Below, in pieces: positions 7,209-47,301 of a stretch of DNA of 64,000 nucleotides. The notes under the pieces were generated by a model, which saw only the letters and a list, made by a program, of their open reading frames with translations, was not told the DNA's origin and made no database searches. The stretch spans positions 1,164,577 to 1,228,576 of the forward strand of contig OZ242187.1 of assembly GCA_965205465.1 (NCBI GenBank), written 5' to 3'. The translations under genes and the position numbers were made by a program. This DNA comes from Candidatus Aldehydirespiratoraceae bacterium. Lineage in GTDB: Bacteria > Actinomycetota > Acidimicrobiia > Acidimicrobiales > Aldehydirespiratoraceae. The stretch's first letter is position 1, and every line of letters begins with the position of its first letter.

Positions 7209-8522
7209 TCAGCGGTCGACTGAACCGCCGTAGCCGGTGGTGCCAGAGGCACCCGCGGCAGCACCGAGGCGTTGCAAAGGCGTGGTGTGAGTAGATGGCG
7301 TCGGCGTGAACTCGACGGGCATCTTCTTCACACCACCGATGAAATTGGAGCGCAGGTAGTCGAGGTCTCCGACCAATCGAATATCTGGCAAGCGCTCGGC
7401 GATGCCCTTGAACATCAGACGAATCTCCATGCGAGCCAGGTTGGCTCCAAGACAGAAGTGAGGTCCGCCGCCTCCAAAACCAATGTGGTCGTTGGGGGTC
7501 CGCTCAATGTCGAAACGCCAAGGATCAGCAAAGGCCCGGGGGTCGCGGTTGGCGGCAATATGCCACATCACGACCTTGTCGTCTTCTTTGATCTTGACAC
7601 CACCCACTTCATAGTCCCGCATGGCTTGACGGCGGAAATGGAGAACCGGCGTAGCCCAGCGCACCACCTCGTCGGCCATGGTCGCGGCGTAACGGTCGGG
7701 ATCTGAGCGGTACTTCTCCCACTGGTCGGGAAATTGGAAGAAGCCGTGCATGCCATGGGTCATCGAGTTGCGGGTGGTTTCGTTGCCTGCCACACAGAGC
7801 AGCAGGAAGAACATGTCGAACTCGGTCTCACTGAGCTTTTCCCCGTCGATATCGGCAGACAGCAGGGTGGTGATGATGTCGTCTGCGGGCTTGTCCCGGC
7901 GTTCCTTCTGCAGAGCATTGGAGTACGCGAACAGCTCCATTGAAGATGCGATCAGATCTTCCCGGGAAGCGACGACATCAGGATCGTCGCCGCCGATCAT
8001 GGCGTTGGTCCAGTCGAAGATTTTTAGACGGTCCTCCAGTGGGATGCCCATCATCTCCGCGATCGCCTGCAACGGAAGTTCGGCGCTCAGATCGTCCACA
8101 AAGTCGGCATAACCCTGCTCAGACACCCTGTCGATGATCATGTCGGTGCGATTCAGCAGGTAGTCCTCCAGCAAGTTGATCATCCGCGGTGTGAAACCGC
8201 GACTGACAATCCGGCGATAGCGGGTGTGCTTAGGGGGATCCAAGGAGATCATCGAATCATGCCTGAATTCGTCGATTGCATCTGCGCGGTTCCGCTCGGT
8301 CATCTGAGTGCCACCGCGATTGGACGAGAACGCTTCGGCGTTGCGGTTGACCTCTTTGAGGTGCTCAAGCCGGGTGATAGCCCAGAACCCAGGACCCCTG
8401 TCTCCCTCATCGATCCAATGAATCCCTGGGTCGGTCTCACGCAGGCGCTCAAGCATGTCGTGGTGTTCCTGGCGCTGGAACGCATCCATGTCCCACAAAT
8501 CAACACCATCAGTAACTGTCAT
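7209..8522 (-). CDS. Cytochrome P450, CYP125-like (steroid/alkyl side-chain omega-hydroxylase family)
   Basis: Haem loop FGGGGPHFCLGANLA, and AGNETTRN and EVVRWATPV motifs. By recollection it is extensively colinear with mycobacterial CYP125. An AGGAG RBS sits 5 nt before the ATG at 8522; the track start is 8528. Confidence 0.88.
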   Translation of the reverse strand: MTVTDGVDLWDMDAFQRQEHHDMLERLRETDPGIHWIDEGDRGPGFWAITRLEHLKEVNRNAEAFSSNRGGTQMTERNRADAIDEFRHDSMISLDPPKHTRYRRIVSRGFTPRMINLLEDYLLNRTDMIIDRVSEQGYADFVDDLSAELPLQAIAEMMGIPLEDRLKIFDWTNAMIGGDDPDVVASREDLIASSMELFAYSNALQKERRDKPADDIITTLLSADIDGEKLSETEFDMFFLLLCVAGNETTRNSMTHGMHGFFQFPDQWEKYRSDPDRYAATMADEVVRWATPVLHFRRQAMRDYEVGGVKIKEDDKVVMWHIAANRDPRAFADPWRFDIERTPNDHIGFGGGGPHFCLGANLARMEIRLMFKGIAERLPDIRLVGDLDYLRSNFIGGVKKMPVEFTPTPSTHTTPLQRLGAAAGASGTTGYGGSVDR

Positions 8523-8585
8523 GCTCACTCCTAGTTTTGCCTTCCTACGAAGGAACTTTAGAGTAAGGACACCCCGATTAGAAAA

Positions 8586-20217: not shown

Positions 20218-20280
20218 CTCTCACTACCGACCATACCGGTAAGTTAGCGACCGTTCACATGCTTGGGGTACACTGCGCGC

Positions 20281-21465
20281 ATGAGCACACCAGAAGTCGT
20301 AATCGTCGACGCCGTCCGCAGCCCAATCGGCAAACGGAACGGTGAACTGTCCACCATGCACAGCATCAACTTGCTAGGCGATGTACAAAAGGCGATCTTT
20401 GAGCGCACCGGGATGGACCCGGCCGCAGTTGGCCAAGTTGTTGGAGGATGCGTCGGCCAGGTCGGTATGCAAGCCATGAATACGGCTCGCAACGCCTGGC
20501 TCGCTGCCGGGCTGCCGCTTTCGGTGGCTGCGACCACAGTCGACGCTCAGTGTGGTTCGAGCCAGCAGGCAACCAACCTCGCTTATTCACTCGTGAAGTC
20601 TGGGGTTGTCGAGGTGGCACTGAGCTGTGGAATCGAGTTGATGAGCCAGATCAAGATGGGCTCGACCATTCCCGATCCCGCTACTACCGGCGTACCGGTC
20701 AACTCCCGCTATTGGAAAAGCTACGAGTGGACCTCACAGTTCGAAGGGGCCGAACGTATCGCTGACAAGTGGGACCTCACCCGGACCGAAGCCGACGAAT
20801 TCGGTCTACGAAGCCAGCAACTAGCAGCTGAAGCCTGGGAAGAAGACGCTTTCGGGTCGCAAATCGTTCCCGTCGAAGTCCCGGTCCTTTCCGAGGACGG
20901 CAAACCCAACGGCGAACACAACTCAGTAACCAAAGACGGAGGTCTGCGCGAGACCACCCTGGAGGCCCTCGCCAACCTGAAACCGGTTGCTCGTGACGAC
21001 GGGATACACACCGCCGGCTCGTCAAGCCAGATCAGCGATGGTGCTGGCGCGGTTTTGATGATGACCCGCGAAAAGGCCGACGAACTCGGCCTGAAACCCC
21101 TAGCAAGGATCGTCGACACCTGTCTCGTCGGCACCGATCCGGTGCTGATGCTGACCGGGCCCATCGATGCCACCCAAAAGCTTCTCGCCGATAACAACCT
21201 CACTATCGACGACATCGGTCTCGTCGAGATCAACGAGGCCTTCGCCTCGGTCGTGTTGGCTTGGGAACGGGAGCTGTCGCCCGACATGAGCACCGTCAAT
21301 CCCAACGGTGGGGCCATTGCTCTTGGTCACCCCCTAGGGGGAACCGGGTCTATCTTGATGACCAAAGCGGTGCACGAGATGCAACGCAGCGACATTGAGT
21401 ACGGCATCGTCACCATGTGTTGCGGCGGTGGTCTAGGAACCGGAACCCTGCTCCAGAAGACTTAG
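20281..21465 (+). CDS. Thiolase (acetyl-CoA C-acyltransferase)
   Basis: VIVDAVRSPIGKRNG N-terminus, active-site QCGSSQQA, and C-terminal NPNGGAIALGHPLG and CCGGG motifs. Confidence 0.92.
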   Translation: MSTPEVVIVDAVRSPIGKRNGELSTMHSINLLGDVQKAIFERTGMDPAAVGQVVGGCVGQVGMQAMNTARNAWLAAGLPLSVAATTVDAQCGSSQQATNLAYSLVKSGVVEVALSCGIELMSQIKMGSTIPDPATTGVPVNSRYWKSYEWTSQFEGAERIADKWDLTRTEADEFGLRSQQLAAEAWEEDAFGSQIVPVEVPVLSEDGKPNGEHNSVTKDGGLRETTLEALANLKPVARDDGIHTAGSSSQISDGAGAVLMMTREKADELGLKPLARIVDTCLVGTDPVLMLTGPIDATQKLLADNNLTIDDIGLVEINEAFASVVLAWERELSPDMSTVNPNGGAIALGHPLGGTGSILMTKAVHEMQRSDIEYGIVTMCCGGGLGTGTLLQKT

Positions 21466-24993: not shown

Positions 24994-27480
24994 TTGAGCG
25001 CTAGAGTCACCGGTGTGAGCGGAAGCGCTTCCCATACTCCCGGCGCGCGAGCGTCCACACAGGCCATTGAGAACTACCGATTTCGCCAACGGCTGATACC
25101 CGTATCCCTGCTCCTCGGAGTCTCGCTCACGTTGGCATCGGTATTCTTATTCGCGTCGGCGAGTTCAGCGCAGGATCCAGTCACGAACCGGATTGAATGC
25201 AGCGACGCCACCGATGATTTCGTGCTGTTGTGCCTCGCCTTCGAGGCAGTGGTCAACAATTTTGTGGATGGCGTAGTTGTAGTGGACTTGGCAGACGCCG
25301 CCAAACAAGGCGTGATAGACGCCAACCTTGCTGAGCGAACGACTGATACGCCGCCCTGTGCATTACCAGCGCCCGAGTTTGAGGACATGTGCGCCGAGAT
25401 CGACAAGGCGGAAGACACCACCGCTGCCGCGGTCGCCGCGACCGATGCGATGTTGGCATCGCTCAACGAGGCGCGGACCCGTCGTTTGACGCCGGCCCAG
25501 CACCGTTCATTCGACGACATCCTGAGTCCTGAAATCACCAGAATCGGAATCGGTATCGAGTTTGCGTTGCTGGACACTGACGGGAATCCCTGCACAACCC
25601 CGAGCGATACCTGCCGCCTGCTAATTCTGGAGGTCTATTCACCGAGTCCCGCAGAAACAGCCGGTTTGATGGTCGGTGATGTAATCGTCGCGTACGGCAA
25701 AGTAGTTGCGGACAACCCCTGCAGGGATCTACGAAGTCTGGACTACGGCCACGACCTTGGAGACACCGTGTCGGTGTCGATACTTCGCAATGGCACAGCC
25801 ATGGATTTTGACTTGGTGACCGCAGAAGTCATCGATCCAGTGGTATTCAGTCAGATTGTCGACGGCAACGTCGGTTACATCCAACTTGACATTTTCGCGA
25901 CCGGTTCTCCGGAGACGTTTCTGGCGCACTTGACTAGTCTGATCGATGCGGGAGCCAAGGCGATCGTGGTGGATCTTCGAAACAACCCGGGCGGTTACCT
26001 CACTGAAACGAGCCTGATTTCCGCTGCTTTCCTCAATGATGGTGACCTTGTATATCGCATTGCCTCGGTTCACTCGGATCAATCCGCGAATTCAAGCGGG
26101 GATGGCATAGCTGCAGATGCGATCGCGTTTCCAATGGCGATAGCCGTCAATGGTCGTTCAGCCTCGGGTTCTGAGCTTTTTGCTTTGGCAATGCGCGGGA
26201 ACAGCCGAGCAAAGATCGTTGGCAGCACCACTTTCGGCAAGCACACGGGGCAGCAGACATTTGCCGCTGAGGCGTCAGATGGTACGTCGTTGGGTGCAAT
26301 ACAGGTGACATCGTTGAGATTCTTCGGGCCGGGCGACCTCAGCTCTGCGGGCGGAATCCAACCTGATTTCGTCGAATCAATATCGGACTGCGCACATCCC
26401 ATCGGTGTTGTACGTCAGTCAGTGCCGTCGCTGTATCCCCGAGTGTCGGAACTCTCCCTTACGTCTATGCCGGCCTCGGTTGCCTACAAGTCAGGCGAAA
26501 AAGTCACGGTGGCTGTCTCTTTTGATGCTCCGGTATCTGTTGATACGGCAAACGGAAAGCCATACCTTGAGTTGCAGGTGGGAACCGAAGTGCGTCAGGC
26601 CGTATATAAGTCGACATTGACGAGCAACGGTGTCAGCGTCGTTGATTTCGAATACACAGTGGCAAACGACACTGACGATGACGGCATCAGCATTGAGCAG
26701 GACTCGATCGTCGGTAACGGCGCGACCATACGCAGGCGTGGTGCTGGTTGGGACGCGATCCTCGACCATCCGCTGCTTGCCGCGGAGATCAACCGCGCCG
26801 TGACCGAACCCCTCATTATTGACCCCGTGATAATCGACCCGGTGACAGTGGAACCAGAACCCGAGCCAGAACCCGTCGAACCCGACCGCTATTTCAGTGA
26901 CATCTCTCACACATCCTTTATCGAAGCGATCAACTGGCTGGCTGAACAACAGATCACCCAAGGTTGCGGACAAGACACGTTCTGCCCGGATCTACCCGTC
27001 ACCCGCGGCCAAATGGCCGCCTTCTTGAGCCGAGCACTGCAACTACCCGCCGCCGACCAAGACTATTTCAACGACGACAACAACTCGACGTTCCAAGACT
27101 ACATCAACCGCCTCATACAAGCCGGAATCACCCAAGGTTGCGGACAAGACACATTCTGCCCAGATCTATCCGTCACCCGCGGCCAAATGGCCGCCTTCTT
27201 GAGCCGAGCACTGCAACTACCCGCGGCGGACCAGGACTATTTCAACGACGCAACAACTCGACGTTCCAAGACTACATCAACCGCCTCCGACAAGCCGGAA
27301 TCACCACGGGTTGCGGGCCAACTACTTTCTGTCCCGACGAGTCCGTCACCCGCGGCCAAATGGCCGCCTTTCTTTATAGAGCTCGTGACCTCATCGAGGC
27401 CGCCCGTCAACAAAACTTGTGAATCCAGCAGTCATCGACTTTCGTTCAAAACTGCCGCTCTCGGCCCTTTGCGTGGTTAG
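24994..27480 (+). CDS. Secreted S41 (tail-specific/C-terminal processing) peptidase with PDZ, an Ig-like domain and C-terminal SLH-like repeats; 3' end disturbed by a 1-nt frameshift (the intact frame would stop at 27422)
   Basis: PDZ (GLMVGDVIVAYG), S41 core (DLRNNPGGYL, NGRSASGSELFA, GSTTFGKHTGQ). Two intact copies of F.D...F...IN.L...GITQGCGQDTFCPD..VTRGQMAAFLSRAL. A third copy is readable only in the -1 frame (track ORF 26964-27422). The start codon is uncertain. Confidence 0.8.
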   Translation: MSARVTGVSGSASHTPGARASTQAIENYRFRQRLIPVSLLLGVSLTLASVFLFASASSAQDPVTNRIECSDATDDFVLLCLAFEAVVNNFVDGVVVVDLADAAKQGVIDANLAERTTDTPPCALPAPEFEDMCAEIDKAEDTTAAAVAATDAMLASLNEARTRRLTPAQHRSFDDILSPEITRIGIGIEFALLDTDGNPCTTPSDTCRLLILEVYSPSPAETAGLMVGDVIVAYGKVVADNPCRDLRSLDYGHDLGDTVSVSILRNGTAMDFDLVTAEVIDPVVFSQIVDGNVGYIQLDIFATGSPETFLAHLTSLIDAGAKAIVVDLRNNPGGYLTETSLISAAFLNDGDLVYRIASVHSDQSANSSGDGIAADAIAFPMAIAVNGRSASGSELFALAMRGNSRAKIVGSTTFGKHTGQQTFAAEASDGTSLGAIQVTSLRFFGPGDLSSAGGIQPDFVESISDCAHPIGVVRQSVPSLYPRVSELSLTSMPASVAYKSGEKVTVAVSFDAPVSVDTANGKPYLELQVGTEVRQAVYKSTLTSNGVSVVDFEYTVANDTDDDGISIEQDSIVGNGATIRRRGAGWDAILDHPLLAAEINRAVTEPLIIDPVIIDPVTVEPEPEPEPVEPDRYFSDISHTSFIEAINWLAEQQITQGCGQDTFCPDLPVTRGQMAAFLSRALQLPAADQDYFNDDNNSTFQDYINRLIQAGITQGCGQDTFCPDLSVTRGQMAAFLSRALQLPAADQDYFNDATTRRSKTTSTASDKPESPRVAGQLLSVPTSPSPAAKWPPFFIELVTSSRPPVNKTCESSSHRLSFKTAALGPLRG
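27246..27254 (+). other. Frameshift site: 'aacgacgcaacaactcg' versus 'aacgacgacaacaactcg' in the preceding repeat (one A missing)
   Basis: Direct comparison of repeat 2 (27066-27090) with repeat 3 (27241-27260). Confidence 0.85.
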
Positions 27481-29121: not shown

Positions 29122-30132
29122 TCAGCCCTTCACCAACTCCGCGATGACTCGCAGTTCCTCTGGGGTGCGGGCTGACACGTTGAGCATTGTGACCGGGCTC
29201 TCGTCCCATGCTTGAAGACGGTCGCGGATCCGATCGACCGAACCGACAAGCGAAATCTCATCAGCGAATTCGGTAGGGACCATGGCAATCGCCTCGTCAC
29301 GCTTCCCCTCGAAGAAAAGGTCCTGGATCTTGTAGGCCTCCTCCTCATATCCCATTCGCGCCATCAACTTGGTGTGGTAATTCTGCCCTTTGGCACCCAT
29401 CCCACCGATGTAGAACCCTAGCGAAGCCTTGGTGGGATACAGCGCCTCTTGGACATCGTCGTGGACGCGCACCGAGACATTGACTGCGATCTCGAAATCA
29501 GGCCTCGCCAGGGCCAACTCGCTGGCGTAGACCTCGGGTCGAAACGGCGAGTAATACAACGGAATCCAACCGTCAGCGATTTCGACTGTTTGGGCAATGT
29601 TCTTTGGTCCTTCGGCGCCGATCCAGATGGGGATCTCACGCAACGGGTGGGTCATCACCTTCAACGGCTTTCCTAATCCCTCCGAACCGTCACCCTGGTA
29701 GGGCATCTGAAAATGATCCCCTTGGAACTCCATCGCGCCCTCACGACGAAACACCTGGCGCAAAATCTCCACATACTCGCGAGTTCGGGCGAGGGGCTTG
29801 CGCGAGGGCATGCCGTACCAGCCTTCGACGACTTGGGGGCCAGACACGCCGAGACCCAAAATCGTGCGTCCGTTGGAAATGTGATCGAGGGTTATGGCAT
29901 GCATGGCAGTCGCTGTTGGCGTGCGAGCCGAGAGTTGCACGACACCGGTTCCGAGCTTGATGCGCTCGGTGTGAGCCGCTATCAGCACAAGGGGGCTGAA
30001 TGCATCCGAACCCCACGACTCAGCGGACCAAACAGCGTCGAATCCAAGCTTTTCGGCTTCCACGCTCAACTCCACCAAGTTGTCGGGCATCCCCCGACCC
30101 CAGTAACCCCAGATTAATCCCAGATCCAACAC
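29122..30132 (-). CDS. Luciferase-like monooxygenase (LLM class, probably F420-dependent oxidoreductase)
   Basis: AEKLGFDAVWSAESWGSDAFS and GRTILGLGVSGPQVVEGWYG motifs. GTG start preceded by GAGGAGGA. Confidence 0.85.
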   Translation of the reverse strand: MLDLGLIWGYWGRGMPDNLVELSVEAEKLGFDAVWSAESWGSDAFSPLVLIAAHTERIKLGTGVVQLSARTPTATAMHAITLDHISNGRTILGLGVSGPQVVEGWYGMPSRKPLARTREYVEILRQVFRREGAMEFQGDHFQMPYQGDGSEGLGKPLKVMTHPLREIPIWIGAEGPKNIAQTVEIADGWIPLYYSPFRPEVYASELALARPDFEIAVNVSVRVHDDVQEALYPTKASLGFYIGGMGAKGQNYHTKLMARMGYEEEAYKIQDLFFEGKRDEAIAMVPTEFADEISLVGSVDRIRDRLQAWDESPVTMLNVSARTPEELRVIAELVKG

Positions 30133-32623: not shown

Positions 32624-33832
32624 CTATCGAGATGTTGCAGCGACCGCTTCGGCGGGGCGGCCCGCGATCAGACCGTCGACACCTCGACCGAGTAGTTCGG
32701 CGTAGAACTCGCGGGTCTCAACCACATCGGTTCCACTCAGCCAAACCCAGACGTAGCGGCCCTCGTTGTGGATCCTCTCGGTGAGTTCTGGGGTAACGAC
32801 TTCGACTCCCTCGAAGGTCAACGGGACCTGTAACACGCGGTAGCGAGAATCGAGAGGTACCCCCGACAAGAACCATGCGAGCATGGCTTCGAGTCCGGGG
32901 CTGGTGGCCACGCTGGGAGCAAGTTCGTTCAACGCGGCCAGCGTCTCGTCGTTGAAAGAACTCACGATCACCGACTGCTCGCGACCCAACTCGGCGATCT
33001 CCGCAGCAAGCACCTCCGCTGCGGCAACACCGGTACGAGGGTCTGCTTCGCCGTCTGGGCCACTTTGGATTTTGATCTCCACGTCTAGCACGTGATTCGG
33101 GAAGCGCTCTGCCACCTCGGTGAACGTCGCCACCGAGAAGTCGTCGGGTTCGAAACCCGGCGGTGGTTCAACCTCCCCTGTGCGCACCCCGCGAAATACA
33201 TACTCCTCATCCGGCTGGGATTGGTCTCCCCATCGGCCGGGCAGGAACCAATGTGCGCTATCAAGCGCCTGGATCTCGGCCAGCGTCAATTCGGCTACTC
33301 GACCGGTGGTTTCGGTAGTGCGGTCCACGGTGTCGTCATGCTGCACGATGAGTACACCATCGGCGGTGAGTTGCACATCAAGTTCGAGGATGTCGGCACC
33401 GGCCGCTGCTGCTTGTGCGTACGCGTAGATCGTCGAGTGTGGATAGTCCTGATCGCCGCCCGCGTGGGCAATAACCAGGGGGCGATCAAGTTCGAGGAGT
33501 TGGTCGAGAGTCGGCGCATCCGGTCGAGGTGCCTCGGTGGTCGTGGTCGAGGGGGCCTTCGTTGTGGTCGTCGTCGCGGGCGCTTGTGTTGTGGAGGTCG
33601 TCGAATCCACAGTCGATGATGTCACCGTCGTGGTTGTAGTCGTTGACGGCTCGACCGATGTTGAGGGCGTTTCAGAACTAGACGGCTCTCCACTACCGTC
33701 TTCGCCGTTACCACAACCCACAACAAACAACCCGGCAACCAGCGCTAGAACCCTGAGCCTGCATGGTTTAGCCAGCGACCGTAAACCAACAGTTCCCTGC
33801 ACAGTATTGCTTTCCGTCGTCGATGCCCACAT
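32624..33832 (-). CDS. Glycerophosphodiester phosphodiesterase lipoprotein with Thr/Ser-rich linker
   Basis: Lipobox LFVVGC, a poly-T/S linker, and a GDPD core (VIAHAGG, ELDVQLTADGVLIVQHDDTVDRTT). The start is uncertain (33832 or the GTG at 33802). Confidence 0.83.
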   Translation of the reverse strand: MWASTTESNTVQGTVGLRSLAKPCRLRVLALVAGLFVVGCGNGEDGSGEPSSSETPSTSVEPSTTTTTTVTSSTVDSTTSTTQAPATTTTTKAPSTTTTEAPRPDAPTLDQLLELDRPLVIAHAGGDQDYPHSTIYAYAQAAAAGADILELDVQLTADGVLIVQHDDTVDRTTETTGRVAELTLAEIQALDSAHWFLPGRWGDQSQPDEEYVFRGVRTGEVEPPPGFEPDDFSVATFTEVAERFPNHVLDVEIKIQSGPDGEADPRTGVAAAEVLAAEIAELGREQSVIVSSFNDETLAALNELAPSVATSPGLEAMLAWFLSGVPLDSRYRVLQVPLTFEGVEVVTPELTERIHNEGRYVWVWLSGTDVVETREFYAELLGRGVDGLIAGRPAEAVAATSR

Positions 33833-33867
33833 CGTTGAGGCTCTGCGGCAAAAGGTATCATGGCCGG

Positions 33868-34887
33868 ATGTCATCCACATTGTTCAGTCTTCTCAAGGAC
33901 TCAATCTCGGGCGATGCTGTGGCGCGCACAGTTGAAGAACACGAGGGCCGGTTCGACACCGTCGGAGACGAAGACCCGAGAGAAAGCGGCTACCACGATC
34001 TTGTCACCGACTACTACAAACTCGTCACGGACTTCTATGAGTACGGCTGGGGCAAGTCCTTCCATTGTGCCCCGCGGCATGCAAACGAGAGCTTTCAAGC
34101 TTCTCTCACCCGCCACCAGCACTTCATTGCCCACAAGCTTGGCCTTCAGCCCGGCATGCGGGTCGCCGACCTGGGTTGTGGTGTCGGCGGTCCACTGCGC
34201 GAAATCATCAGCTTTTCTGGCGCCAACGTGGTCGGCGTCAACATCAGTTCCTACCAACTTGAACTTGCGCGGAAATACACCGATGAAGCCGGACTTGGTC
34301 ATTTGGCGGAGTTTCTTGAATGCGACTTCATGAACGTTGACGCGCCCGACAGCTCTTTCGACGCCATCTTTGCGATTGAGGCGACGCCTCATGCGCCCGA
34401 TCTCGTCCGCGTGTTCAGCGAAGCTCTGCGCCTGCTGAAAGGTGGCGGTTGCTTCGCCACGTACGAGTGGTGCCTGACGGATCAATTTGATGTCAACGAC
34501 CCGTATCACGTTCAGCTCAAGAATGACATTGAGCTGGGCGCAGCGACGCAAGAGATGCGATACAAACACGATGTAGACGCGGCGTTCCGTGAAGCCGGTT
34601 TCGAATTGCTGGAAACGCGCGACTTAGCTGAACAAACTACGCCTGGAATTCCGTGGTATCAGCCCTTGGTCGGTTCCGGTGTTTCTCTTTCGAGATTCCG
34701 CAGTTCAAGTGTCGGCCGACAGGCGACATATCGTTCCTTGCGTGCGCTAGAAGCGCTCAGGGTCGTCCCAGCTGGAGCGTCGGAGGTTTCGAGGCTCTTG
34801 AACATCGGCGCGAAAGCCCTCGCCGAGGCCGGTCGGCTGGGGATCTTCACCCCGATGTACTTCGCGCTCGCCCGCAAACCTGCCTAG
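33868..34887 (+). CDS. Sterol 24-C-methyltransferase (ERG6/SMT)-like SAM-dependent methyltransferase
   Basis: YYKLVTDFYEYGWGKSFHCAPR, DLGCGVGGPLREI, IEATPHAP and YEWCLTD motifs. The C-terminal ...LAEAGRLGIFTPMYFALARKP matches the sterol-MT C-terminal domain pattern. Confidence 0.8.
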   Translation: MSSTLFSLLKDSISGDAVARTVEEHEGRFDTVGDEDPRESGYHDLVTDYYKLVTDFYEYGWGKSFHCAPRHANESFQASLTRHQHFIAHKLGLQPGMRVADLGCGVGGPLREIISFSGANVVGVNISSYQLELARKYTDEAGLGHLAEFLECDFMNVDAPDSSFDAIFAIEATPHAPDLVRVFSEALRLLKGGGCFATYEWCLTDQFDVNDPYHVQLKNDIELGAATQEMRYKHDVDAAFREAGFELLETRDLAEQTTPGIPWYQPLVGSGVSLSRFRSSSVGRQATYRSLRALEALRVVPAGASEVSRLLNIGAKALAEAGRLGIFTPMYFALARKPA

Positions 34888-36284: not shown

Positions 36285-37610
36285 ATGAAATCTACAGTGG
36301 TAACCCAACCAAAACCGAGCACCGAAGACTCGTTCCATGTTGTCGAACTAGACGATGTAGGCGATGCTTTAGAAATAGCAGCCAAACTCGAATATGGTGG
36401 TTTGCCTGGTGCTGTGTTGGGTGATTCAACAGTGCGTGTCGCAGAGTTGAAAGCACAACTAGCGGCGTTGGAATCTGAGATCGTTGCCGCTTATGACGCC
36501 TCAGGCGATTGGCAGGTTTCAGGTTACCGAACCGTTGGCGCAGCGTTGACGCACCGCGCTCGGATACGGCGCTCAGAAGCCAACCAGACGGTTCAGTTGG
36601 CGCGTTCGCTCAAGGCAATGCCCCTCGTGTCTGACGCGCTCAGCAACGGTGAGATCAGTCTCTGTCACGCACGTCGGCTGGCCAAAGCCTCCACACGCAA
36701 CAGTTTCAGCGATGTTGAACCGTTGTTGTGCGACCATGCCCGCGGACTCAGTTACGCGGCTTTTGACAAGGCGGTGTCATATTGGGAACACCTCATCGAC
36801 ACCAACGCAGCCGAACATGACGCGACGTTCAAAGAACAACGCCGCGAGTTCCATGCGTCGATGACCTTCGACGGGATGGGACGCCTCGACGGATGGCTCG
36901 ACCCGATCAGCTTCGAGGCGTTCCGTAACGCTTTGGACCGCATCGAAGCCGAACTGTTCAACAACGACTTAAAAGATGCACAAGCCGACCACGCCGACAA
37001 ACACGCCGCTGAACTATGGCGCACACCCGCACAAAGACGCGCTGACGCCCTAATCGAGATGGCACGACGCGCCACCGCAGTACCCGAAGGCGCAAAGACC
37101 CCTGAACCGTTGGTGATCATCCACATGGACAAACCAACCTTCGAAACCGGCCTCAACCAGACCCTCGGCCCAACCCTGTACACCAACCCATCACCACCCA
37201 ACCAACCCCCACCCCCCGAAACCAACCGCGGCGACACCTCGACCGGCAAACTCTGCGAAACTGACCGCGGTGACATGTTGACCGGCAGACTCTGCGAAAC
37301 TGACAGCGGGGCGGTGATCACCCCAACCCAAGGCGTTGAACAAGCCCTCAGAGGCCACATCCGCCGCCTCGTCTATCAATCACCCGGCGTGATCTTGGAC
37401 TACGGCCGCTCCACCCGACTCTTCACCGGAGCGCTACGCCAAGCCATCCAAGCCCGAGACCGCACCTGCCGCCATCCCGGCTGCGACCTACCAGCCCGAC
37501 TATGCGAAATCGACCACATCACCGAATGGCAACACGGCGGCACCACCGTCCACACCAACGCTGCCACCCGCTGCTCCTACCACCACCGCCACCACAAACC
37601 CCCCATATAA
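36285..37610 (+). CDS. DUF222 domain / HNH endonuclease protein (13E12-repeat family type)
   Basis: The N-terminal region has AELKAQLAALESEIVAAYD...HARRLAKA (DUF222-like). The C-terminus has CRHPGCDLPARLCEIDHITEWQHGGTTVHTNAATRCSYHH (HNH). There is an internal 39-bp duplication (LCETDRGD...). Confidence 0.85.
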   Translation: MKSTVVTQPKPSTEDSFHVVELDDVGDALEIAAKLEYGGLPGAVLGDSTVRVAELKAQLAALESEIVAAYDASGDWQVSGYRTVGAALTHRARIRRSEANQTVQLARSLKAMPLVSDALSNGEISLCHARRLAKASTRNSFSDVEPLLCDHARGLSYAAFDKAVSYWEHLIDTNAAEHDATFKEQRREFHASMTFDGMGRLDGWLDPISFEAFRNALDRIEAELFNNDLKDAQADHADKHAAELWRTPAQRRADALIEMARRATAVPEGAKTPEPLVIIHMDKPTFETGLNQTLGPTLYTNPSPPNQPPPPETNRGDTSTGKLCETDRGDMLTGRLCETDSGAVITPTQGVEQALRGHIRRLVYQSPGVILDYGRSTRLFTGALRQAIQARDRTCRHPGCDLPARLCEIDHITEWQHGGTTVHTNAATRCSYHHRHHKPPI

Positions 37611-38783: not shown

Positions 38784-40046
38784 TCAATCAGCGAACGGAG
38801 CGGGGACACCACAACGCTCACCTGGCGAGAATGTAACCGGCATAGTGACAACGCCCGTCATCAGCAAGTTGCCGGGATACGGCTTGAAACCATCGAGGTT
38901 GATCTGGTAGTCGGGAACTCGGTCCAACACATCGGCAATCATCAACTCGGACTGGAGCCGGGCGATGCTTGAACCCACACAACGGTGGCCGCCCAACCCG
39001 AAGGCCAGATGTTTATTGACCTCGCGGTCAATTACTACCTCACCAGCTCGTTCAAAGGCGCTGGGATCACGATTGGCGGCAACCCAGGAGATAAGAATCA
39101 CATCGCCGCGCTTGATTTGTCGACCTCCTAGTTCGACATCTCGGGTGGCCGTGCGGGTCAACGACTCGCTAGGACTGTAGAAGCGCAGAAACTCCTCGAC
39201 TGCGCTGACGATGAGCGTCCGGTCGTCGATGAGACGCTGCCGGTCCGCCGCGTGCGTACCCAGGTAATGCAACCCCCAAGACACCAGCGATGTGGTCGTG
39301 TCGATTCCTCCCGCAACCAGATTCCAAAGGATTCCGACCACTTGGTCATCGCTCGGAACGCTGCCGTCGAGAACGCTGGTGACGATCGCCGAGGTGAGAT
39401 CGCTTGACGGATTGGCCCGGCGATACCGGGTGTAATCAGCCAATTCCTCCCACATCGTCGACCAGTTGGCGAGCGCGGCATGCAGGCGTGGGTCGTCTTT
39501 AGTGAACGACGAGGTGGCGTGAAAGAAGTCCGCGTAGTAGCGCCAGTTCTTGCTGGGCATTCCCATCATTTCGAGGGTCATAACTGCAGGTACGGGGGTG
39601 GCGTAGTCATCTACTAGGTCGCATGCGCCGCTTTCGATCACTTCGTCGAGGAACCAGCCCGATACCTGAGCCATGCGATCTCGATTGGCTTCAACTGCTT
39701 TGCTGACCATGAATGGGTTTATTACCCGACGCAGATCGGCGTGCTCGCGACCATCGATTTCTGACACGCCCATGCGGACAAGGTTCGGCGGTCGGGGGAT
39801 CCCACAGATTCCCCGGTAAGCAATTCCCTCCTCAGACTCCGGGTCGTAGCGATGCGCAAACGTTTCGTTGTCACGGGCGACCTGCGCCACCGAGGCGTAG
39901 TCGGTAACCATCCAAAAGCCGCCGTACGCCGCGTTGTGTACGACCGGGCAAGTCTCGCGTAGTTCCGCGTAGCGCTGGTGTCGCTGCGCGACAAAGTCCG
40001 CTTCCTGGTGGTCAACGTCAACCTCAACCCCTAGACCGTCGCTCAC
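38784..40046 (-). CDS. Cytochrome P450
   Basis: Haem loop FGLGGHRCVGSSIA, an EEFLRFYSP (ExxR) motif, and AGGIDTT in the I-helix. GTG start at 40046 with a GAGGAGG RBS (40053-40059). Confidence 0.9.
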   Translation of the reverse strand: MSDGLGVEVDVDHQEADFVAQRHQRYAELRETCPVVHNAAYGGFWMVTDYASVAQVARDNETFAHRYDPESEEGIAYRGICGIPRPPNLVRMGVSEIDGREHADLRRVINPFMVSKAVEANRDRMAQVSGWFLDEVIESGACDLVDDYATPVPAVMTLEMMGMPSKNWRYYADFFHATSSFTKDDPRLHAALANWSTMWEELADYTRYRRANPSSDLTSAIVTSVLDGSVPSDDQVVGILWNLVAGGIDTTTSLVSWGLHYLGTHAADRQRLIDDRTLIVSAVEEFLRFYSPSESLTRTATRDVELGGRQIKRGDVILISWVAANRDPSAFERAGEVVIDREVNKHLAFGLGGHRCVGSSIARLQSELMIADVLDRVPDYQINLDGFKPYPGNLLMTGVVTMPVTFSPGERCGVPAPFAD

Positions 40047-40240
40047 GGGTTCACCTCCTCTAAGCCAGTCTCGCCCTATCCCCCACCCCGCGCAATCGCA
40101 GCCCGACACTCCACTCACCAACACGACACGCTTCGGTTACGCGCTCAGCCGGTTTCGACCATCACTCACTTCTTGTCGCAGCGCGCTACGGTTGTCTCCA
40201 CGTGGTCCCGGGCAGCGGGGCCGAAACCTAGGAATTCGAG

Positions 40241-41650
40241 ATGAGAATTTTACCGTCTGTTGAGCCCACTCCCGAGCAGCTCAAGATCCTTAAGCACGCA
40301 AAGCACGGCCATCTCTTGATCAGGGGTGCGGCCGGGAGTGGCAAGACCACCGCCGCTCTACTGCGCTTGCACGCCCAAGTCGCGTCGCGACTGAGCCGAC
40401 GAAAACGCCTCGGGCATGACGCACCAGTACGGGCTCTGGTGCTGACGTTCAATCGAACCCTGGAAGGCTATATTGCGGAACTCGCTCGTCAATCGTCGCC
40501 GAACGATGATGCGCTTCATCTCGAGATCAGTACGTTTAGCCGCTGGGCAAAATCACTGGTCGGAAACGTCGACATCGCTGGGCGCGACGATTCGTCAGCG
40601 ATACTCCGACTGCACCTTCAAACCTTCACCACCTCACGCCAGCACGAGTTCATGGTCGACGAGGTTCAATATGTCCTCGGTCGTTTCAGGCCGGGAACAC
40701 TCTCCGACTATCTCACTGTCGTTCGAGAAGGTCGGGGGGCCGCGCCCCGCATGGATCGCCCGGTACGCGAAGTATTGCTCCAGGACGTTCTTCCTGCATA
40801 CGCTAAGGCTAAAGCTGAACGTGGTGTCGTCGACTGGAATGATCTCGCACTGTTGGCGGCCGAGGCTGAAACCGGCCTGCTCTACGACATCGTAATCATT
40901 GACGAGGCACAAGATTTCTCTGCCAATCAGGTCCGGGCAGTAACCCGCCACTTGCGAGACTTGCACAGCACAACTTTCGTGCTCGACGCTGTCCAGCGCA
41001 TCTACCCGCAATACTTTAAATGGAAAGAAGTTGGCATCTCCGCCCGACCCGAAATGATCTATACGCTCCGGGAGAACTACCGCAATACCTCCGCTATCGC
41101 CAAGTTCGCCCGCCCGCTCGTTGCCGACCTCCCTGTTGAAGACGATGGAACGTTGCCAGACTTCACCGCCTGCAATCGCAAAGGTGCCAAGCCGGTGGTC
41201 GTTGTCGGTAAATACAACGCTCAACTCAAGGTCATGCTTGATCGGCTTGAACACCGCGCCGACCTGTCCAGCGAATCCGTGGCCCTGCTCCAACCACGCG
41301 GCGGTGGCTGGTTCAACGAGGCCCGCAGAATACTCGATGCCCGAAGTATCCCGTTCTGCGAGTTGTCCCGACAAAACAAATGGCCTTCGGGTAATGAGGT
41401 CGTGGCACTGTGCACCATCCATTCCGCCAAGGGACTCGAGTTTGACCATGTGCTTCTTCCCGGCCTCAGCCAGCAGGTCACACCGCACGGTCCCGAGGAC
41501 GGCGACGCAGACCTCGACCGGCTCCGTCGCATGTTGGCGATGGCAGTTGGCCGGGCGCGAAAGTCAGTAATGGTCGGCTACAAACCTGGTGAGGAGTCTT
41601 CCTTGATCGGGCTCCTAGACCCCTCCACCTACAAATTGATTGAGGCGTAA
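40241..41650 (+). CDS. Compact superfamily-1 (UvrD/Rep-like) helicase/ATPase
   Basis: Full SF1 motif set: Q (PTPEQ), I (GAAGSGKTT), Ia (LTFNRT), II (IIDEAQDF), III (LDAVQRIY), IV (RENYRNT), V (TIHSAKGLEFDHVLL), VI (MAVGRARKSV). Confidence 0.85.
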   Translation: MRILPSVEPTPEQLKILKHAKHGHLLIRGAAGSGKTTAALLRLHAQVASRLSRRKRLGHDAPVRALVLTFNRTLEGYIAELARQSSPNDDALHLEISTFSRWAKSLVGNVDIAGRDDSSAILRLHLQTFTTSRQHEFMVDEVQYVLGRFRPGTLSDYLTVVREGRGAAPRMDRPVREVLLQDVLPAYAKAKAERGVVDWNDLALLAAEAETGLLYDIVIIDEAQDFSANQVRAVTRHLRDLHSTTFVLDAVQRIYPQYFKWKEVGISARPEMIYTLRENYRNTSAIAKFARPLVADLPVEDDGTLPDFTACNRKGAKPVVVVGKYNAQLKVMLDRLEHRADLSSESVALLQPRGGGWFNEARRILDARSIPFCELSRQNKWPSGNEVVALCTIHSAKGLEFDHVLLPGLSQQVTPHGPEDGDADLDRLRRMLAMAVGRARKSVMVGYKPGEESSLIGLLDPSTYKLIEA

Positions 41651-41655
41651 GCGCC

Positions 41656-42339
41656 ATGGCGTGGCTTCCCGAAGCTCAACCGCAAACTGCCGAAGAGTCA
41701 AGCCGAGCTCCGTCTTGCCCAGAGATCGCCATGGCGGCCAATGAACGCCGCATTACCAGGATCGTACATTTCACCCGCATAAGCGGACTCGTGGGCATAT
41801 TGGCTAGTTCGGCCGTCAAGGCCCGACGTGACTTGCCAAAGGATAGTCAGCTAAAATACGTCTACGGAGAGAACGCGACTGACCGGAGCCGGGACTTGCC
41901 TTGGCACGGCTACGTCAATCTGTCCGTGTCGGAGATCAACGTTCATATGTTCCAGCGCTCCGTGACGTGGCACCCAAACGATGAATGGGTGATCCTTGAG
42001 TTCGACCCAGACATCCTGACTCATCCAGGTGTGGTGTTCAGCACAACAAACAACGCTTATGACGTATCTCATCGCGCTACTGGGCTTGAGGGCTTCAACC
42101 AAATGTTCGCATCGGAGGTTCCCTGGGGCTACCTGGGTACCGTCAGTTATCGCCGCGGTCGAGGGTCGCATCAGCCAACCAATCCACAAGCAGAGGTTCT
42201 TTACCCGTTCAGGCTCTCCCTTGAGCACCTTGACGCGATTACTGTGAGTGATGAAGACACCTACGACAGTGTTGAGGGCGCATTGTCCCCCTTTCCCCCC
42301 AATCCTAGAATTGCTTGTGTCCCGGAGGCATTCCAGTGA
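41656..42339 (+). CDS. DarT-like (DUF4433-like) ADP-ribosyltransferase, candidate toxin
   Basis: Three colinear motifs recalled from DarT: ITRIVHFTRISGLVGIL (cf. I.HiThi.NL..Il), WHGYVNLSV (cf. hDYVPFYF) and NPQAEVLYPF..SLEHLDAITV (cf. kQAE.Lv.....l..I..I.v). The size (227 aa) fits. No HMM search was run. Confidence 0.6.
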   Translation: MAWLPEAQPQTAEESSRAPSCPEIAMAANERRITRIVHFTRISGLVGILASSAVKARRDLPKDSQLKYVYGENATDRSRDLPWHGYVNLSVSEINVHMFQRSVTWHPNDEWVILEFDPDILTHPGVVFSTTNNAYDVSHRATGLEGFNQMFASEVPWGYLGTVSYRRGRGSHQPTNPQAEVLYPFRLSLEHLDAITVSDEDTYDSVEGALSPFPPNPRIACVPEAFQ

Positions 42340-44063
42340 CCACGACAACGACCAACACAAACCCAACGCCCCAAGAACAGGTACCTCTGTTCGACGATTC
42401 CAACGACGACCACTCCAGCGCGGAGTCGTGCCTTCAGGACGCTGGTGGCGTCGTGCCCCGATCTCCTCAGGCCGACAACAGCCGCTGTGCACAGACTCGC
42501 AATTCCATGTTGTGGGCTGCTTATGCGGACGCTCTCGGATTCATCAGTGAACTCGTGGACCACAAAGGTCTCAAGAGGAGAACCAAAGGCGCGGAACTAG
42601 ACCGGCTCATGGAATGGAGGCGGCGAGTCGGGGGGCGAGGAGGCGTTGATGTCGTGCTGCCAGCGGGGTGCTGGTCCGACGATACCCAGTTGCGCATGGC
42701 TGTGAGCCGAACGATCACTCACCATGGCTTCGACATTGAAACCTTCTCCCGCATTGAGTTGCCCGTATGGCCCGCCTACGCCCTGGGAGGTGGCCGCGCT
42801 TCCAAGGCGGCGGCCAAGAACCTCGGTAAGCCTGGGGCTCTGTGGTACGCCAACACCTTTCCTGGATGGAATAACGCGGGCGGAAACGGTGCCGCCATGA
42901 GAATTCAGCCGCATGTCTGGTCCTCTCGAAACCTCACAGACGACTACCTGCTTGATGTGATCGTGGACAGCGTCTGCACTCACGGGCACCCCCGTGCGAT
43001 CGTCGGAGCGTGTTTCCACGCTTCCACACTGGCGCACTGTCTACGGGTCGGCACTATTCCCGACCTGACCACAAGCGACGAAATCGCCGCGGGGATGCGC
43101 GACGTCGTCCACCTAATTGAGGATCACCCGACTCTCGGATCCACTTGGATCGGCCTTTGGGAACGAGAGACCGGTCAGCAGTTTCGAGAAGTTTGGAACT
43201 CCACCGTTGACGAACTCCACACGGCAATCAGCCAGGTTTCGTCTGACTCCAACACGGCCGACGGCACAACCGGGGCCTACCAGAACATCTGTGATCGTCT
43301 CGGACTAGACGCAGCAAACCAGCGGGGCAGCGGCATTCTCACGACCGTCGCCGCAATTGCATCGGCTGCAATCTCTCAGAGCGCCCACGAAGGCATCATC
43401 GCTGCCGCGAATGCTGTCGGCACCGACACCGACACGATCGCGACAATGGCCGGAGCATTGCTTGGTGCTTGTGACAGAGCCGGTCAACCCCCCGAAGAAC
43501 CCCTCGACAGTGACTACTTGCTGAGCGAATCCGACCGACTGGTAGCCATCTCGCAGTGCCAAACCGTCCGTAACCAACGGTACCCCGACACTCTCACTTG
43601 GGCAGCGCCCCAGACTCAAGCCGACGCGTTGGTGAGAGACGATAAAGGACTCGCGGTGGAAGGTCTCGGTCCGGTAACGGAGTTGGAAACCAGCGCCGTG
43701 CGTACGCCCCGCAACGACTTCGCCTGGCAGTGGGTTCGGACCGATTTCGGCCAGACACTTCTCATCAAACGGCGGACAGCAGTGAGGTTTCTCGGTGCCG
43801 GAAACAACCTCGAACCGCCACCTGCGCCGGTAAACCGATCTCGCTCCCGCAAAGCTGCCAAGCCCGTCGCACCAGCCAGCGGCGAGCACAGCGACCCGAA
43901 GTTGGACTGTAGCGTCGAGGTTGACGAAGCCGTTAGATACGCCAAGGAGAACATCAACGACGACGCAGCACTCGGTCGCATCGTTCGCAAGGTCGCTCAA
44001 GAAAGCACCCTCGGTAACTCTCTTACCTTCATGAGAGAAATTCGCGAGAAATTGCAACATTGA
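42336..44063 (+). CDS. ADP-ribosylglycohydrolase (ARH/DraG family) with ~180-aa C-terminal extension, candidate antitoxin
   Basis: ARH hallmarks: AAYADALGFISE, WSDDTQL, GNGAAMRIQPH, THGHPRA, GTDTDTIATMAGALLGA. The GTG at 42336 overlaps the upstream TGA (GTGA). A GGAGG RBS lies at 42324-42328. Confidence 0.85.
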   Translation: MTTTTTNTNPTPQEQVPLFDDSNDDHSSAESCLQDAGGVVPRSPQADNSRCAQTRNSMLWAAYADALGFISELVDHKGLKRRTKGAELDRLMEWRRRVGGRGGVDVVLPAGCWSDDTQLRMAVSRTITHHGFDIETFSRIELPVWPAYALGGGRASKAAAKNLGKPGALWYANTFPGWNNAGGNGAAMRIQPHVWSSRNLTDDYLLDVIVDSVCTHGHPRAIVGACFHASTLAHCLRVGTIPDLTTSDEIAAGMRDVVHLIEDHPTLGSTWIGLWERETGQQFREVWNSTVDELHTAISQVSSDSNTADGTTGAYQNICDRLGLDAANQRGSGILTTVAAIASAAISQSAHEGIIAAANAVGTDTDTIATMAGALLGACDRAGQPPEEPLDSDYLLSESDRLVAISQCQTVRNQRYPDTLTWAAPQTQADALVRDDKGLAVEGLGPVTELETSAVRTPRNDFAWQWVRTDFGQTLLIKRRTAVRFLGAGNNLEPPPAPVNRSRSRKAAKPVAPASGEHSDPKLDCSVEVDEAVRYAKENINDDAALGRIVRKVAQESTLGNSLTFMREIREKLQH

Positions 44064-44198
44064 TCACACCGGCCGGTGGATCATCACATCCAAATAAAAG
44101 CGTCATGGCAGACTTCGACCTCGTAGTGCTCTCAATGAAGCGCTTATGCTCAAACTGGATAACAGAAGCGGTTCTCGTTGATCGCAGGGAGAAATGCA

Positions 44199-45050
44199 AT
44201 GACTATGGACCTATTCCGCTATGACGGGAAACGGGTTGTGGTAGTCGGCGGAGCTACCGGCATGGGGGCATCGACTGCGCGTATGGCCTCCGATCTCGGT
44301 GCGGAAGTAATCGTGATTGATGTCGCCGAAGTCGCATACGACTGTGCTCAGACGATTCAAGTTGACCTTCGCAACCAGCCCGAGGTCGACGCCGCTGTTG
44401 ACGCGATCGCTGGGCCTGTTGACGCGGTGTTTGCCTGCGCCGGGGTAGCCGACGGCACGCCCGGCATAATGCTCATCAACTTCACCAGCCAACGCCACCT
44501 GATCGAACGCATGGTGGCCGACAACAGGTTGGTGCCAGGGGGTTCGGTTGCATTGGTCTCATCGGTGGCCGGACTGGGGTGGCGCAAAAACATCGAACAG
44601 GTGAAGGACTTTCTCTCCAATGAGGACTGGGCCGCGGCAGCCGCATGGACCGAAGCTCATCCCGTTACCGACAACTACGGTTTCAGCAAAGAGGCGATCA
44701 ACTGTTACGTCGCCCAGCAGGGTTTCCCTTTGCTCACCAAGGGAATCCGCATCAACGCGATCCTGCCGGGCCCGACCGATACTCCCCTGGCACGCGCAAA
44801 CGCCGATCTTTGGCTCACCTTCGGCGCCGACTACCGCGAAGCAACAAACTCACCGACTCTGCAGCCCGACCAGATGGCCTCCACCATGATCTTCTTGTGC
44901 TCGGCAGCCGCCAGCGGGATCAACGGCGTGACCTTGCTGGTCGACCAAGGCCATGTGAGCGCTTCTTTGGTTGACTCCTTCGACGCACCTCTCGTGAAGA
45001 TGATCGCCGGTGAGATGGAGTTCGACCTCGCAGCACTCGGCTTCGAGTAG
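44199..45050 (+). CDS. Short-chain dehydrogenase/reductase (SDR)
   Basis: VVVVGGATGMGAS cofactor motif and a YGFSKEA catalytic Tyr/Lys. ATG at 44199 after a GGGAGA RBS. Confidence 0.85.
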   Translation: MTMDLFRYDGKRVVVVGGATGMGASTARMASDLGAEVIVIDVAEVAYDCAQTIQVDLRNQPEVDAAVDAIAGPVDAVFACAGVADGTPGIMLINFTSQRHLIERMVADNRLVPGGSVALVSSVAGLGWRKNIEQVKDFLSNEDWAAAAAWTEAHPVTDNYGFSKEAINCYVAQQGFPLLTKGIRINAILPGPTDTPLARANADLWLTFGADYREATNSPTLQPDQMASTMIFLCSAAASGINGVTLLVDQGHVSASLVDSFDAPLVKMIAGEMEFDLAALGFE

Positions 45051-45129
45051 CCCACCCAGGCGTTCTTGGTCACGCAACCAGCACAGGTGTTAGTTTCTGC
45101 TGCACGGGACAATGCCAAGGGAGACCGCC

Positions 45130-46413: not shown

Positions 46414-46416
46414 CGG

Positions 46417-47175
46417 TTAGCGCAAACCTCCGTCGAGACGCAGGATGGCGCCGGTGGTGTAAACGCCGGCATCGCTCGCGAAATAGAGGGCCGCGCCGAC
46501 AACCTCGTCGGGTTGACCAGCCCGGCCGAGCGAGATCTGGTCGCCGAGCCCAGCGATCGCCTCAGCTGACCAAGCCTTGGATATGTCGGTCAGGAACGGG
46601 CCTGGTTGGATGCAGTTGACCCGAACCTCGGGTCCGTATGCCTTGGACAGGCTTTCGGTCAGGTTGTGGAGGCTCGCTTTGGCCATCCCGTATACGACTT
46701 CGCCCGGTGTCGGTTTGGTTGCCGCGCTCGAGCTGACGAAGATGATCGAGCCTGAGCCGCGCGCCTTCATACGGTCGCCTACCACGGCGGTTAAACGGAA
46801 CGTTCCCTTGAGGTTGACATCCATCACCTTGTCGTACAGCGCTTCGCTGATCTCTCCAACTGAGGGATACAAAGGTGCCATTCCAGCGTTGTTGACCAGG
46901 ATGTCAATGTCACCGAACCGTTGGCAGGCCGCATCGGCAAGCGCCTCCACCTGGTCCCAATACCCAACATGACACTCGAGCGGCAGGGCTTCGACACCAA
47001 AGGCACGAGCTTCATCAGCAACCGCTTCGCAGTTGTCGAGCTTGCGGCTGGCGATGACAACGTTGGCTCCGTGTTCGGCAAAGGCCAGAACCATTTCACG
47101 TCCGAGTCCCCGACTGCCGCCAGTGACTACGGCGGTGCGCCCCGTCAGGTCGAATAGTTCACTTGCGTGTGTCAT
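46417..47175 (-). CDS. SDR (FabG-like 3-oxoacyl reductase family)
   Basis: VTGGSRGLGREM, NNAG and YGMAKAS motifs. Confidence 0.9.
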   Translation of the reverse strand: MTHASELFDLTGRTAVVTGGSRGLGREMVLAFAEHGANVVIASRKLDNCEAVADEARAFGVEALPLECHVGYWDQVEALADAACQRFGDIDILVNNAGMAPLYPSVGEISEALYDKVMDVNLKGTFRLTAVVGDRMKARGSGSIIFVSSSAATKPTPGEVVYGMAKASLHNLTESLSKAYGPEVRVNCIQPGPFLTDISKAWSAEAIAGLGDQISLGRAGQPDEVVGAALYFASDAGVYTTGAILRLDGGLR

Positions 47176-47184
47176 GGCTCCTGG

Positions 47185-47288: not shown

Positions 47289-47301
47289 CGAGGCGACCGC
47301 T

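Follow-up and report, generated by a model that had tools for sequence, protein, structure and literature searches.

Sterol C-24 methyltransferases (SMTs) of uncultured bacteria have been characterized in some detail. In vitro activity was shown for 20 of 24 metagenomic SMTs, and three carried out propylation (Brown, Olagunju, Giner & Welander 2023, PMC10070321); both desmosterol and 24-methylenecholesterol can serve bacterial SMTs as substrates in vitro (Brown et al. 2023, PMC10070321; Brown & Welander 2025, bioRxiv 10.64898/2025.12.19.695621). Metagenome-assembled genomes (MAGs) from sponges, those of Acidimicrobiia included, contain sterol genes, with an enrichment of ERG6 homologues (Kelly et al. 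2022). The gene analyzed here, found in a 64,000-nucleotide stretch of contig OZ242187.1 (the window), adds a member to this class of bacterial sponge-associated SMTs, which was already published in 2022-2025 and has been partly assayed. The host is an uncultured, probably sponge-associated Acidimicrobiaceae bacterium (Acidimicrobiia), with a contig of ~4.12 Mb and 59% GC. We consider the gene product to be an S-adenosylmethionine (SAM)-dependent sterol side-chain C-methyltransferase of the ERG6/SMT family, leaning to sterols from the host or the environment, with a probability of about 0.7.

With the published sponge-symbiont and environmental SMTs (PMC10070321; 10.64898/2025.12.19.695621), the window SMT shares its architecture, a length of ~340 amino acids (aa), ~41% identity to ERG6, placement in a clade with Gly, Ala or Thr at position 249 (ERG6 numbering, used for all such positions below) and an uncultured, probably sponge-associated host. 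In contrast to them, it has at most 59% identity to any assayed SMT that we recovered, Ala instead of Gly at 249, Cys instead of Phe at 91, an actinobacterial host and a location outside a sterol gene cluster; no actinobacterial SMT is named in either Brown paper. The new points are modest: an actinobacterial lineage with complete genomes, an SMT set apart from a sterol cluster amid genes of sterol-catabolism type, and a natural F91C allele.

Membership in the ERG6/SMT family

Comparisons were made with Saccharomyces cerevisiae ERG6, a manually entered sequence that reproduces the published numbering (Brown & Welander 2025) at 25 of 25 positions and at D249. By BLASTP against this sequence, the window SMT is 41% identical over 335 residues (E 4e-91) and falls in the ERG6 identity and E-value range of bacterial SMTs with proven activity (38-42%, E 1e-77 to 1e-88; Brown et al. 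2023, Suppl. Data 1, PMC10070321). Brown et al. searched for SMTs as proteins that match ERG6 by BLASTP at E <= 1e-50 with >= 30% identity and carry both Pfam domains, and all three features are found here. Sterol_MT_C (PF08498) matches at E 6.7e-21 and 74.6 bits against a cutoff of 21.7, covering profile positions 2-65 of 66, and Methyltransf_11, the class I SAM-methyltransferase core, spans residues 101-197 (E 1.3e-18). Matches of this strength lie well outside what chance would produce. All 120 best database homologues carry PF08498 as well. Among NCBIfam profiles, no SMT model passed on the window SMT, the matches being generic methyltransferases far below their cutoffs.

The homology to ERG6 is full length: Regions I-IV can be aligned, as can the C-terminal domain, with small gaps only, and both proteins have Tyr at 81 and 83 (Tyr57 and Tyr59 of the window SMT in the MAFFT alignment), ERG6 being single-methylating. 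The window SMT differs in having neither the N-terminal (~25 residues) and C-terminal (~15 residues) extensions nor a 7-residue insert, in the replacement of D249 by Ala and F91 by Cys, and in its bacterial host. The enclosing open reading frame (ORF) extends over 33823..34887(+) and 354 aa, with the ATG at 33868 as codon 16. The correct start is 33868, because the public calls, like nearly all homologues, have 339-341 aa and start with MSS or MxxKL. The public call on ENA contig ERZ25071132:ctg817721 has 339 aa, and an identical protein is encoded on a 4,124,646-bp NCBI/ENA contig.

The residue signature of functional SMTs comprises 25 conserved positions, including 84-GWGxxFHF-91 (Brown & Welander 2025). 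In an alignment with the 120 database homologues, the window SMT has 24 of these residues, the exception being Cys67 at the position of F91 (codon TGT, 34066-34068); this incomplete signature lowers the activity that can be predicted from it. In the SAM-binding motif, D101, G103, G105, G108 and P109 align to ERG6 125-133. The motifs named in the first-pass annotation are all present in the translation (YEYGWGKSFH at 57-66, LGCGVGGP at 102-109, IEATPHAP at 170-177, YEWCLTD at 199-205 and FTPMYFALARKP at 327-338), although its region numbers have to be changed: the literature assigns the SAM motif to Region II and the IEAT motif to Region III, with G217 as the marker of Region IV. It had also overlooked that Region I ends in Cys (GWGKSFHC) in place of the invariant Phe.

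Solved structures provide a less specific comparison. No solved SMT structure was found in the PDB, either by sequence or by a fold search with an AlphaFold2 model of the window SMT (predicted local distance difference test score 79.7, predicted template modelling score 0.81). By sequence, PDB matches cover the Rossmann core only, the best non-SMT methyltransferase having an E-value of 2e-20. Entry 6f5z, labelled '24-sterol C-methyltransferase', was discarded as a core-only match (E 7e-10) that is not a true SMT. The nearest solved folds found by Foldseek are TleD, RebM/AtmM/MitM and geranyl diphosphate C-methyltransferase. TleD and the geranyl diphosphate enzyme resemble the window SMT in being class I methyltransferases, and they methylate an isoprenoid C=C bond via a carbocation as predicted for it (Foldseek E ~1e-18 to 1e-15, template modelling score 0.55-0.65); in contrast to it, they have no Sterol_MT_C lid, and their identity to it is 16-24%. 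The reactions of these two fold neighbours are consistent with SMT chemistry without being specific to it.

In a neighbour-joining (distance) tree rooted on ERG6, its single eukaryotic sequence, and used for clade assignment only, bacterial SMTs form two clades, one with Asp or Asn and the other with Gly, Ala or Thr at 249. The window SMT belongs to the latter, where it forms a tight Ala249 subclade with P0001, P0002, P0008 and P0009, sister to a Poriferisodalis group. Together with the domain architecture, the full-length similarity to ERG6 and the 24 signature residues, this placement bears out the initial assignment as a full-length ERG6/SMT-type homologue in a bacterium. Grouping with methyltransferases of the fatty-acid or tocopherol type, named at the outset as the outcome that would speak against that assignment, was not observed, as the protein stays within the bacterial SMTs and its non-SMT matches in the PDB are limited to the core.

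The nearest database proteins are P0001 at 95% identity and, at 83-87%, proteins that carry the name '[Acidimicrobiaceae bacterium]'; within the 87%-identity cluster, one protein is already called 'sterol 24-C-methyltransferase family protein'. Relatives at 58-66% identity are labelled 'sterol methyltransferase [Candidatus Poriferisodalis / Poriferisocius sp.]'. An exhaustive search of 1.84 billion representatives returned 366 clusters (50% identity level, E <= 1e-30), in which a single representative at 59% identity stands for the whole clade of the window SMT. Five contigs found in a scan of JGI and GenBank metagenomes encode SMTs that the two Brown papers assayed: LXNI01016685 (59% identity to the window SMT), Lake Fryxell (49%), LXNI01004480 (48%), LXNJ01014139 (47%) and Beatty hot spring (46%, inactive).

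Several observations weigh against the proposed function and sterol source. The closest assayed relative recovered, that on LXNI01016685, showed no activity on either test substrate (desmosterol or 24-methylenecholesterol), and among 10 further Gly249-type SMTs from sponge metagenomes only 4 were active (Brown & Welander 2025, 10.64898/2025.12.19.695621). The change of Phe91 to Cys in this sublineage affects a residue that is Phe in all ~170 other sequences compared and in every SMT tested in the literature. No sterol-synthesis genes were found within ~30 kb on either side of the SMT, nor in the syntenic regions of its 83% sister genome (L002, circular, 4.15 Mb) and of a second strain (L174) found in the same sample. 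In addition, the lean to exogenous sterol rests on negative searches that cover part of the diversity of oxidosqualene cyclases (OSCs).

Possible sources of the sterol substrate

Sterol from the host or the environment is slightly favored over an unlinked de novo pathway (about 55:45), because the SMT stands alone, no OSC could be tied to its lineage, and genes of side-chain catabolism type occur in the window. A precedent for uptake is an SMT of Chlamydiae in a genome that has no sterol synthesis genes (Brown et al. 2023). Like the window SMT, this protein ('Chlamydiae sp., drinking water MAG') has no other recognizable sterol-synthesis genes nearby, and it is the published precedent for the methylation of host-acquired sterols. 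However, it has Gly249 and Phe83 and makes 24-isopropyl sterols, whereas the window SMT has neither feature.

The SMT is apparently monocistronic: the GDPD lipoprotein gene on its upstream side is divergent, and the NMO-family gene, whose stop lies 18 nt away, is convergent with it. The same GDPD-SMT-NMO arrangement is kept in the sister genome and in the second strain but not in Poriferisodalis, where the order is EthD-SMT-Amidohydro_2 at one locus and SMT-DUF7802-FA_hydroxylase at another. At the latter (L006, 10986-13094), a divergent SMT of 57% identity overlaps the DUF7802 gene, which is followed by an ERG3/ERG25-type FA_hydroxylase, and the three genes may form a small sterol-tailoring unit. 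Other members of the clade were seen in different settings. An alphaproteobacterial MAG (L165, 12438-15567) has three tandem SMTs beside an OSC, two of them from the clade of the window SMT (55-57% identity) and one from the other clade, and two loci of distant clade members (L005 and L010) combine two SMTs with an SdmA-like Rieske protein, a GPP34-P450 fusion and a sterol-sensing MMPL transporter.

A CYP125-like P450 and other enzymes of steroid side-chain type had been reported in the window from the outset and taken as a hint at sterol handling. The P450 is real, and the thiolase and the Rv3520c-type oxidoreductase likewise belong to this type (Table 1), which bears out the hint in part. 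Spread over 25 kb and mixed with housekeeping genes, these genes of mycobacterial cholesterol-catabolism type suggest sterol or lipid catabolism in the organism and not an SMT operon. The two remaining P450s of the window are generic, and no ring-opening genes (KshA, KstD or Hsa) were seen in it. All ~50 ORFs of the window were also scanned against Pfam; none matched SQHop_cyclase/OSC, squalene epoxidase, squalene synthase or CYP51, in agreement with the original remark that the window has no OSC.

It is possible, if rather doubtful, that the SMT performs the tailoring step of a full de novo pathway whose cyclase and demethylases are encoded elsewhere on the 4.1-Mb chromosome, so that the organism makes its own 24-alkylated sterols. 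For instance, a sponge-type fusion of squalene monooxygenase and OSC (SMO-OSC) occurs in at least five Acidimicrobiales/Acidimicrobiia MAGs, where it does not adjoin an SMT, and sponge Acidimicrobiia have ERG24-CYP51-LSS clusters with the remaining sterol genes dispersed over the chromosome (Kelly et al. 2022). The FA_hydroxylase beside the Poriferisodalis SMT points in the same direction, as would, tentatively, two SMTs of the window's clade that share contig sizes with an OSC match (2,106,183 and 1,037,924 bp).

These points were set against the distribution of OSCs in a scan of one genome per GTDB species, from which we fetched the best 80 of at least 564 loci, and in protein searches with an Acidimicrobiales OSC and an 'Acidimicrobiaceae' SMO-OSC fusion, of which the best 120 of 995 and the best 120 of 644 matches were considered. 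The 80 loci share 74-100% identity and come from Gammaproteobacteria, Nitrospirales, Binatia, Alphaproteobacteria, Chloroflexota and five MAGs of Acidimicrobiales/Acidimicrobiia. In 51 of them the SMO-OSC gene directly adjoins an SMT of the Asp/Asn249 clade (members include LXNI01004480, LXNJ01014139, Porisulfidus and Nitrospirales sponge MAGs), which is 43-51% identical to the window SMT and comes from the same habitats; members of the window's clade usually do not lie beside this gene, nor does the window SMT. Similarly, at all 13 metagenome loci where a cyclase with DCTxE and QW motifs stands beside an SMT, the SMT is of the Asp/Asn249 clade; the cyclases of these loci served as queries in the genome scan. 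At the five actinobacterial OSC loci, no SMT lies within 10 kb and the GC content amounts to 0.69-0.72, versus 0.59 in the window.

Of the ~250 OSC matches from the genome scan and the protein searches, none could be tied to the window lineage. Tetranucleotide correlations (r) between OSC contigs and the window are 0.85-0.86, and at most 0.89, compared with 0.988 for the sister genome and 0.975-0.985 within the window. An OSC cluster named 'Acidimicrobiaceae bacterium' (P0160, with member P0254 on a 4,146,695-bp contig) was considered as a candidate for the window lineage and, for those of its contigs that were read, rejected on a GC content of 0.68, an r of 0.85 versus 0.99 within the lineage, and the accession numbers. 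The NCBI protein accessions of 'Acidimicrobiaceae' OSCs and of the 87%-identical SMTs are >20,000 apart, which implies different MAGs. A link between OSC P0194 and SMT P0301, both on 39,820-bp contigs, was also rejected, since the two contigs proved to be unrelated; given this coincidence, the same-size links at the Mb scale (P0017/L098 and P0026/P0179) are tentative only. Altogether, the searches provide mild evidence against a sponge-type OSC in the window lineage.

The SMO-OSC fusion itself has a wide distribution, its protein sequence being 74-100% identical in MAGs of at least eight phyla or classes that include Porisulfidus, Tepidiformaceae and Vicinamibacterales. This similarity implies recent horizontal spread among sponge symbionts, which is consistent with Kelly et al. 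(2022) but far broader in taxa.

Predicted products and the cysteine at position 91

By analogy with known SMTs, the reaction would begin with an attack on the SAM methyl group by the delta-24 double bond of desmosterol, zymosterol or a similar sterol. The carbocation thus formed would be stabilized by the aromatic pocket of Region I, and its deprotonation would give a 24-methylene or a 24-methyl-delta-25 sterol. A second round of methylation would perhaps lead to 24-ethyl or 24-ethylidene sterols. Gly249 is needed for 24-isopropyl products, as G249A mutants yield sterols of the C28 and C29 type whereas C30 products are missing, and propylation is favored by Phe at 81 or 83 (Brown & Welander 2025, 10.64898/2025.12.19.695621). 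The window SMT has Ala225, Tyr57 and Tyr59 at these positions and so differs from propylating SMTs, which combine Gly249 with Phe at 81 and/or 83; it is therefore predicted to carry out one or two methylations without forming 24-isopropyl sterols.

Region I aromatic residues are thought to stabilize cationic intermediates and to steer the product outcome. Cys91 was found in none of the 120 cluster representatives and in none of ~50 further sequences, and, within the papers searched, nothing on mutagenesis of ERG6 F91 was found apart from the 2025 preprint (Brown & Welander). Within the >=90% identity cluster, however, four of the 15 distinct alleles listed have Cys91 (P0291, the window's own, and P0293, P0301 and P0304) in several assemblies, so that the view of Cys91 as private to the window genome or a possible error was abandoned. 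These alleles form one subclade with two Phe alleles nested within it. The TGT codon is common to the window and the second strain, whereas the sister genome has TTC. Between the two Cys91 genes, the ratio of nonsynonymous to synonymous substitution rates (dN/dS) is 0.13 at a synonymous divergence (dS) of 0.19, and it is 0.14 between the window and its Phe-bearing 83% sister. Given several assemblies and a low dN/dS, the change is real, heritable and tolerated or possibly favored by selection, and its persistence under purifying selection argues for retained function.

SMT-like enzymes of Botryococcus methylate squalene or botryococcene. The window SMT might likewise use another substrate, such as a triterpenoid or isoprenoid olefin, or methylate another sterol position, for instance C-26 of an (epi)codisterol-type sterol, although we regard this as unlikely. 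The two standard substrates were not methylated by several SMTs of the same clade that have no obvious defects, which the authors of the assays suggest may reflect substrate specificity. Moreover, no C-26 sterol methyltransferase has been discovered so far, and an otherwise invariant Region I residue is altered in the sublineage. On the other hand, the remaining sterol- and SAM-binding residues are canonical, and the Phe and Cys alleles are otherwise near-identical, which together with the nesting of Phe alleles among Cys alleles argues against a major functional shift. A bolder version, for which we see only a slim chance, is that the Cys91/Ala249 sublineage remodels host sterols without a cyclase of its own and with altered regiochemistry or substrate, such as C-26 methylation, the Region I change being an adaptation; C-26 methylation would then yield sponge biomarkers of the aplysterol or 26-methylstigmastane type. 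Least probable of all is a crippled or inactive Cys91 enzyme heading for loss, which would fit the presence of Phe91 in SMTs of the literature whether active or inactive, and in all other homologues compared, but not the intact ORF, the conserved local synteny, Cys67 as the sole deviation at columns that are at least 95% conserved, or the recurrence of Cys91 in at least four alleles under the selective constraint described above.

Features of the window and significance

The coordinates of the SMT, its motifs and the genes of sterol-catabolism type are given in Table 1.

Table 1. Features of the SMT gene and of catabolism-type genes in the window
Feature	Position	Strand	Basis
CYP125-like P450 (steroid C26-monooxygenase type)	7209..8528	-	E ~1e-113 to CYP125 structures; ~25 kb from SMT; context only
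NMO-family gene adjoining steroid-type thiolase	19060-20217	-	
Thiolase	20263..21465	+	NCBIfam equivalog 'steroid 3-ketoacyl-CoA thiolase', 518.4 vs 515 bits; context only
Rv3520c-family F420-dependent LLM oxidoreductase	29122..30132	-	431 vs 335 bits; context only
SMT coding sequence, 339 aa + stop	33868..34887	+	ORF list, Pfam, public gene call
Region I (sterol-binding) YEYGWGKSFHC, residues 57-67	34036..34068	+	Alignment to ERG6
SAM-binding motif DLGCGVGGP, residues 101-109	34168..34194	+	Matches ERG6 125-DxGxGxxGP-133
IEATPHAP, residues 170-177; Glu171 = conserved ERG6 E195	34375..34398	+	Alignment
Ala225 = ERG6 position 249	34540..34542	+	Alignment
Sterol_MT_C domain, residues 275-338, terminating in IFTPMYFALARKP	34690..34881	+	Pfam

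A block of SDR, Amidohydro_2, SDR, Amidohydro_2, P450 and family III CoA-transferase genes occupies 44178-50931 and likewise belongs to the mycobacterial cholesterol-catabolism type. Close to the SMT, a DUF222 (HNH-endonuclease-type) gene at 36285-37610 (segment 36050-37760) is flanked by the 25-nt direct repeat TTCGCCGGGCGTAGCCGGAGCCGCG. Two copies of the repeat precede the gene and three follow it, against 0 expected by chance, and the rest of the window contains none. The sister genome lacks the gene, which looks like a small mobile insertion adjoining the SMT-NMO pair.

A second variable segment at 40241-44063 encodes a UvrD-like helicase, a DarT-like single-stranded DNA ADP-ribosyltransferase (Pfam E 1e-19; PADLOC DarT 1.9e-10) and a 575-582-aa protein of the ADP-ribosylglycohydrolase (ARH) family, which together make up a 4.16-kb module. 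The corresponding indel spans about 40020-44182: the second strain has 82 bp instead of the module, and in the sister genome the module is 95.6% identical at the nucleotide level, compared with 90.7% for its flanks. PADLOC gave no match to a macrodomain DarG beside the DarT-like gene, and the ARH-family protein is the presumed antidote. The module could represent a mobile defence islet that carries a variant DarT system.

Four secreted proteins with S-layer-homology (SLH) domains are encoded at 15219-19027, 24994-27480 and 60124-62634, two with PD40 beta-propellers, one with an S41 peptidase-PDZ arrangement and one with a long leucine-rich-repeat array. The last is of a eukaryote-like repeat type that is typical of sponge symbionts, and its gene accounts for a strong excursion of the GC/AT skew at 60-62 kb.

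Side-chain alkylated steranes are read as biomarkers of eukaryotes, and of sponges, so that every bacterial lineage that alkylates sterols bears on their interpretation. The window SMT adds an actinobacterial lineage, Acidimicrobiaceae, with complete genomes of ~4.1 Mb, and leaves the existing picture of 2022-2025 unaltered. Its natural F91C change offers a ready-made test of the role proposed for the aromatic residues of Region I.

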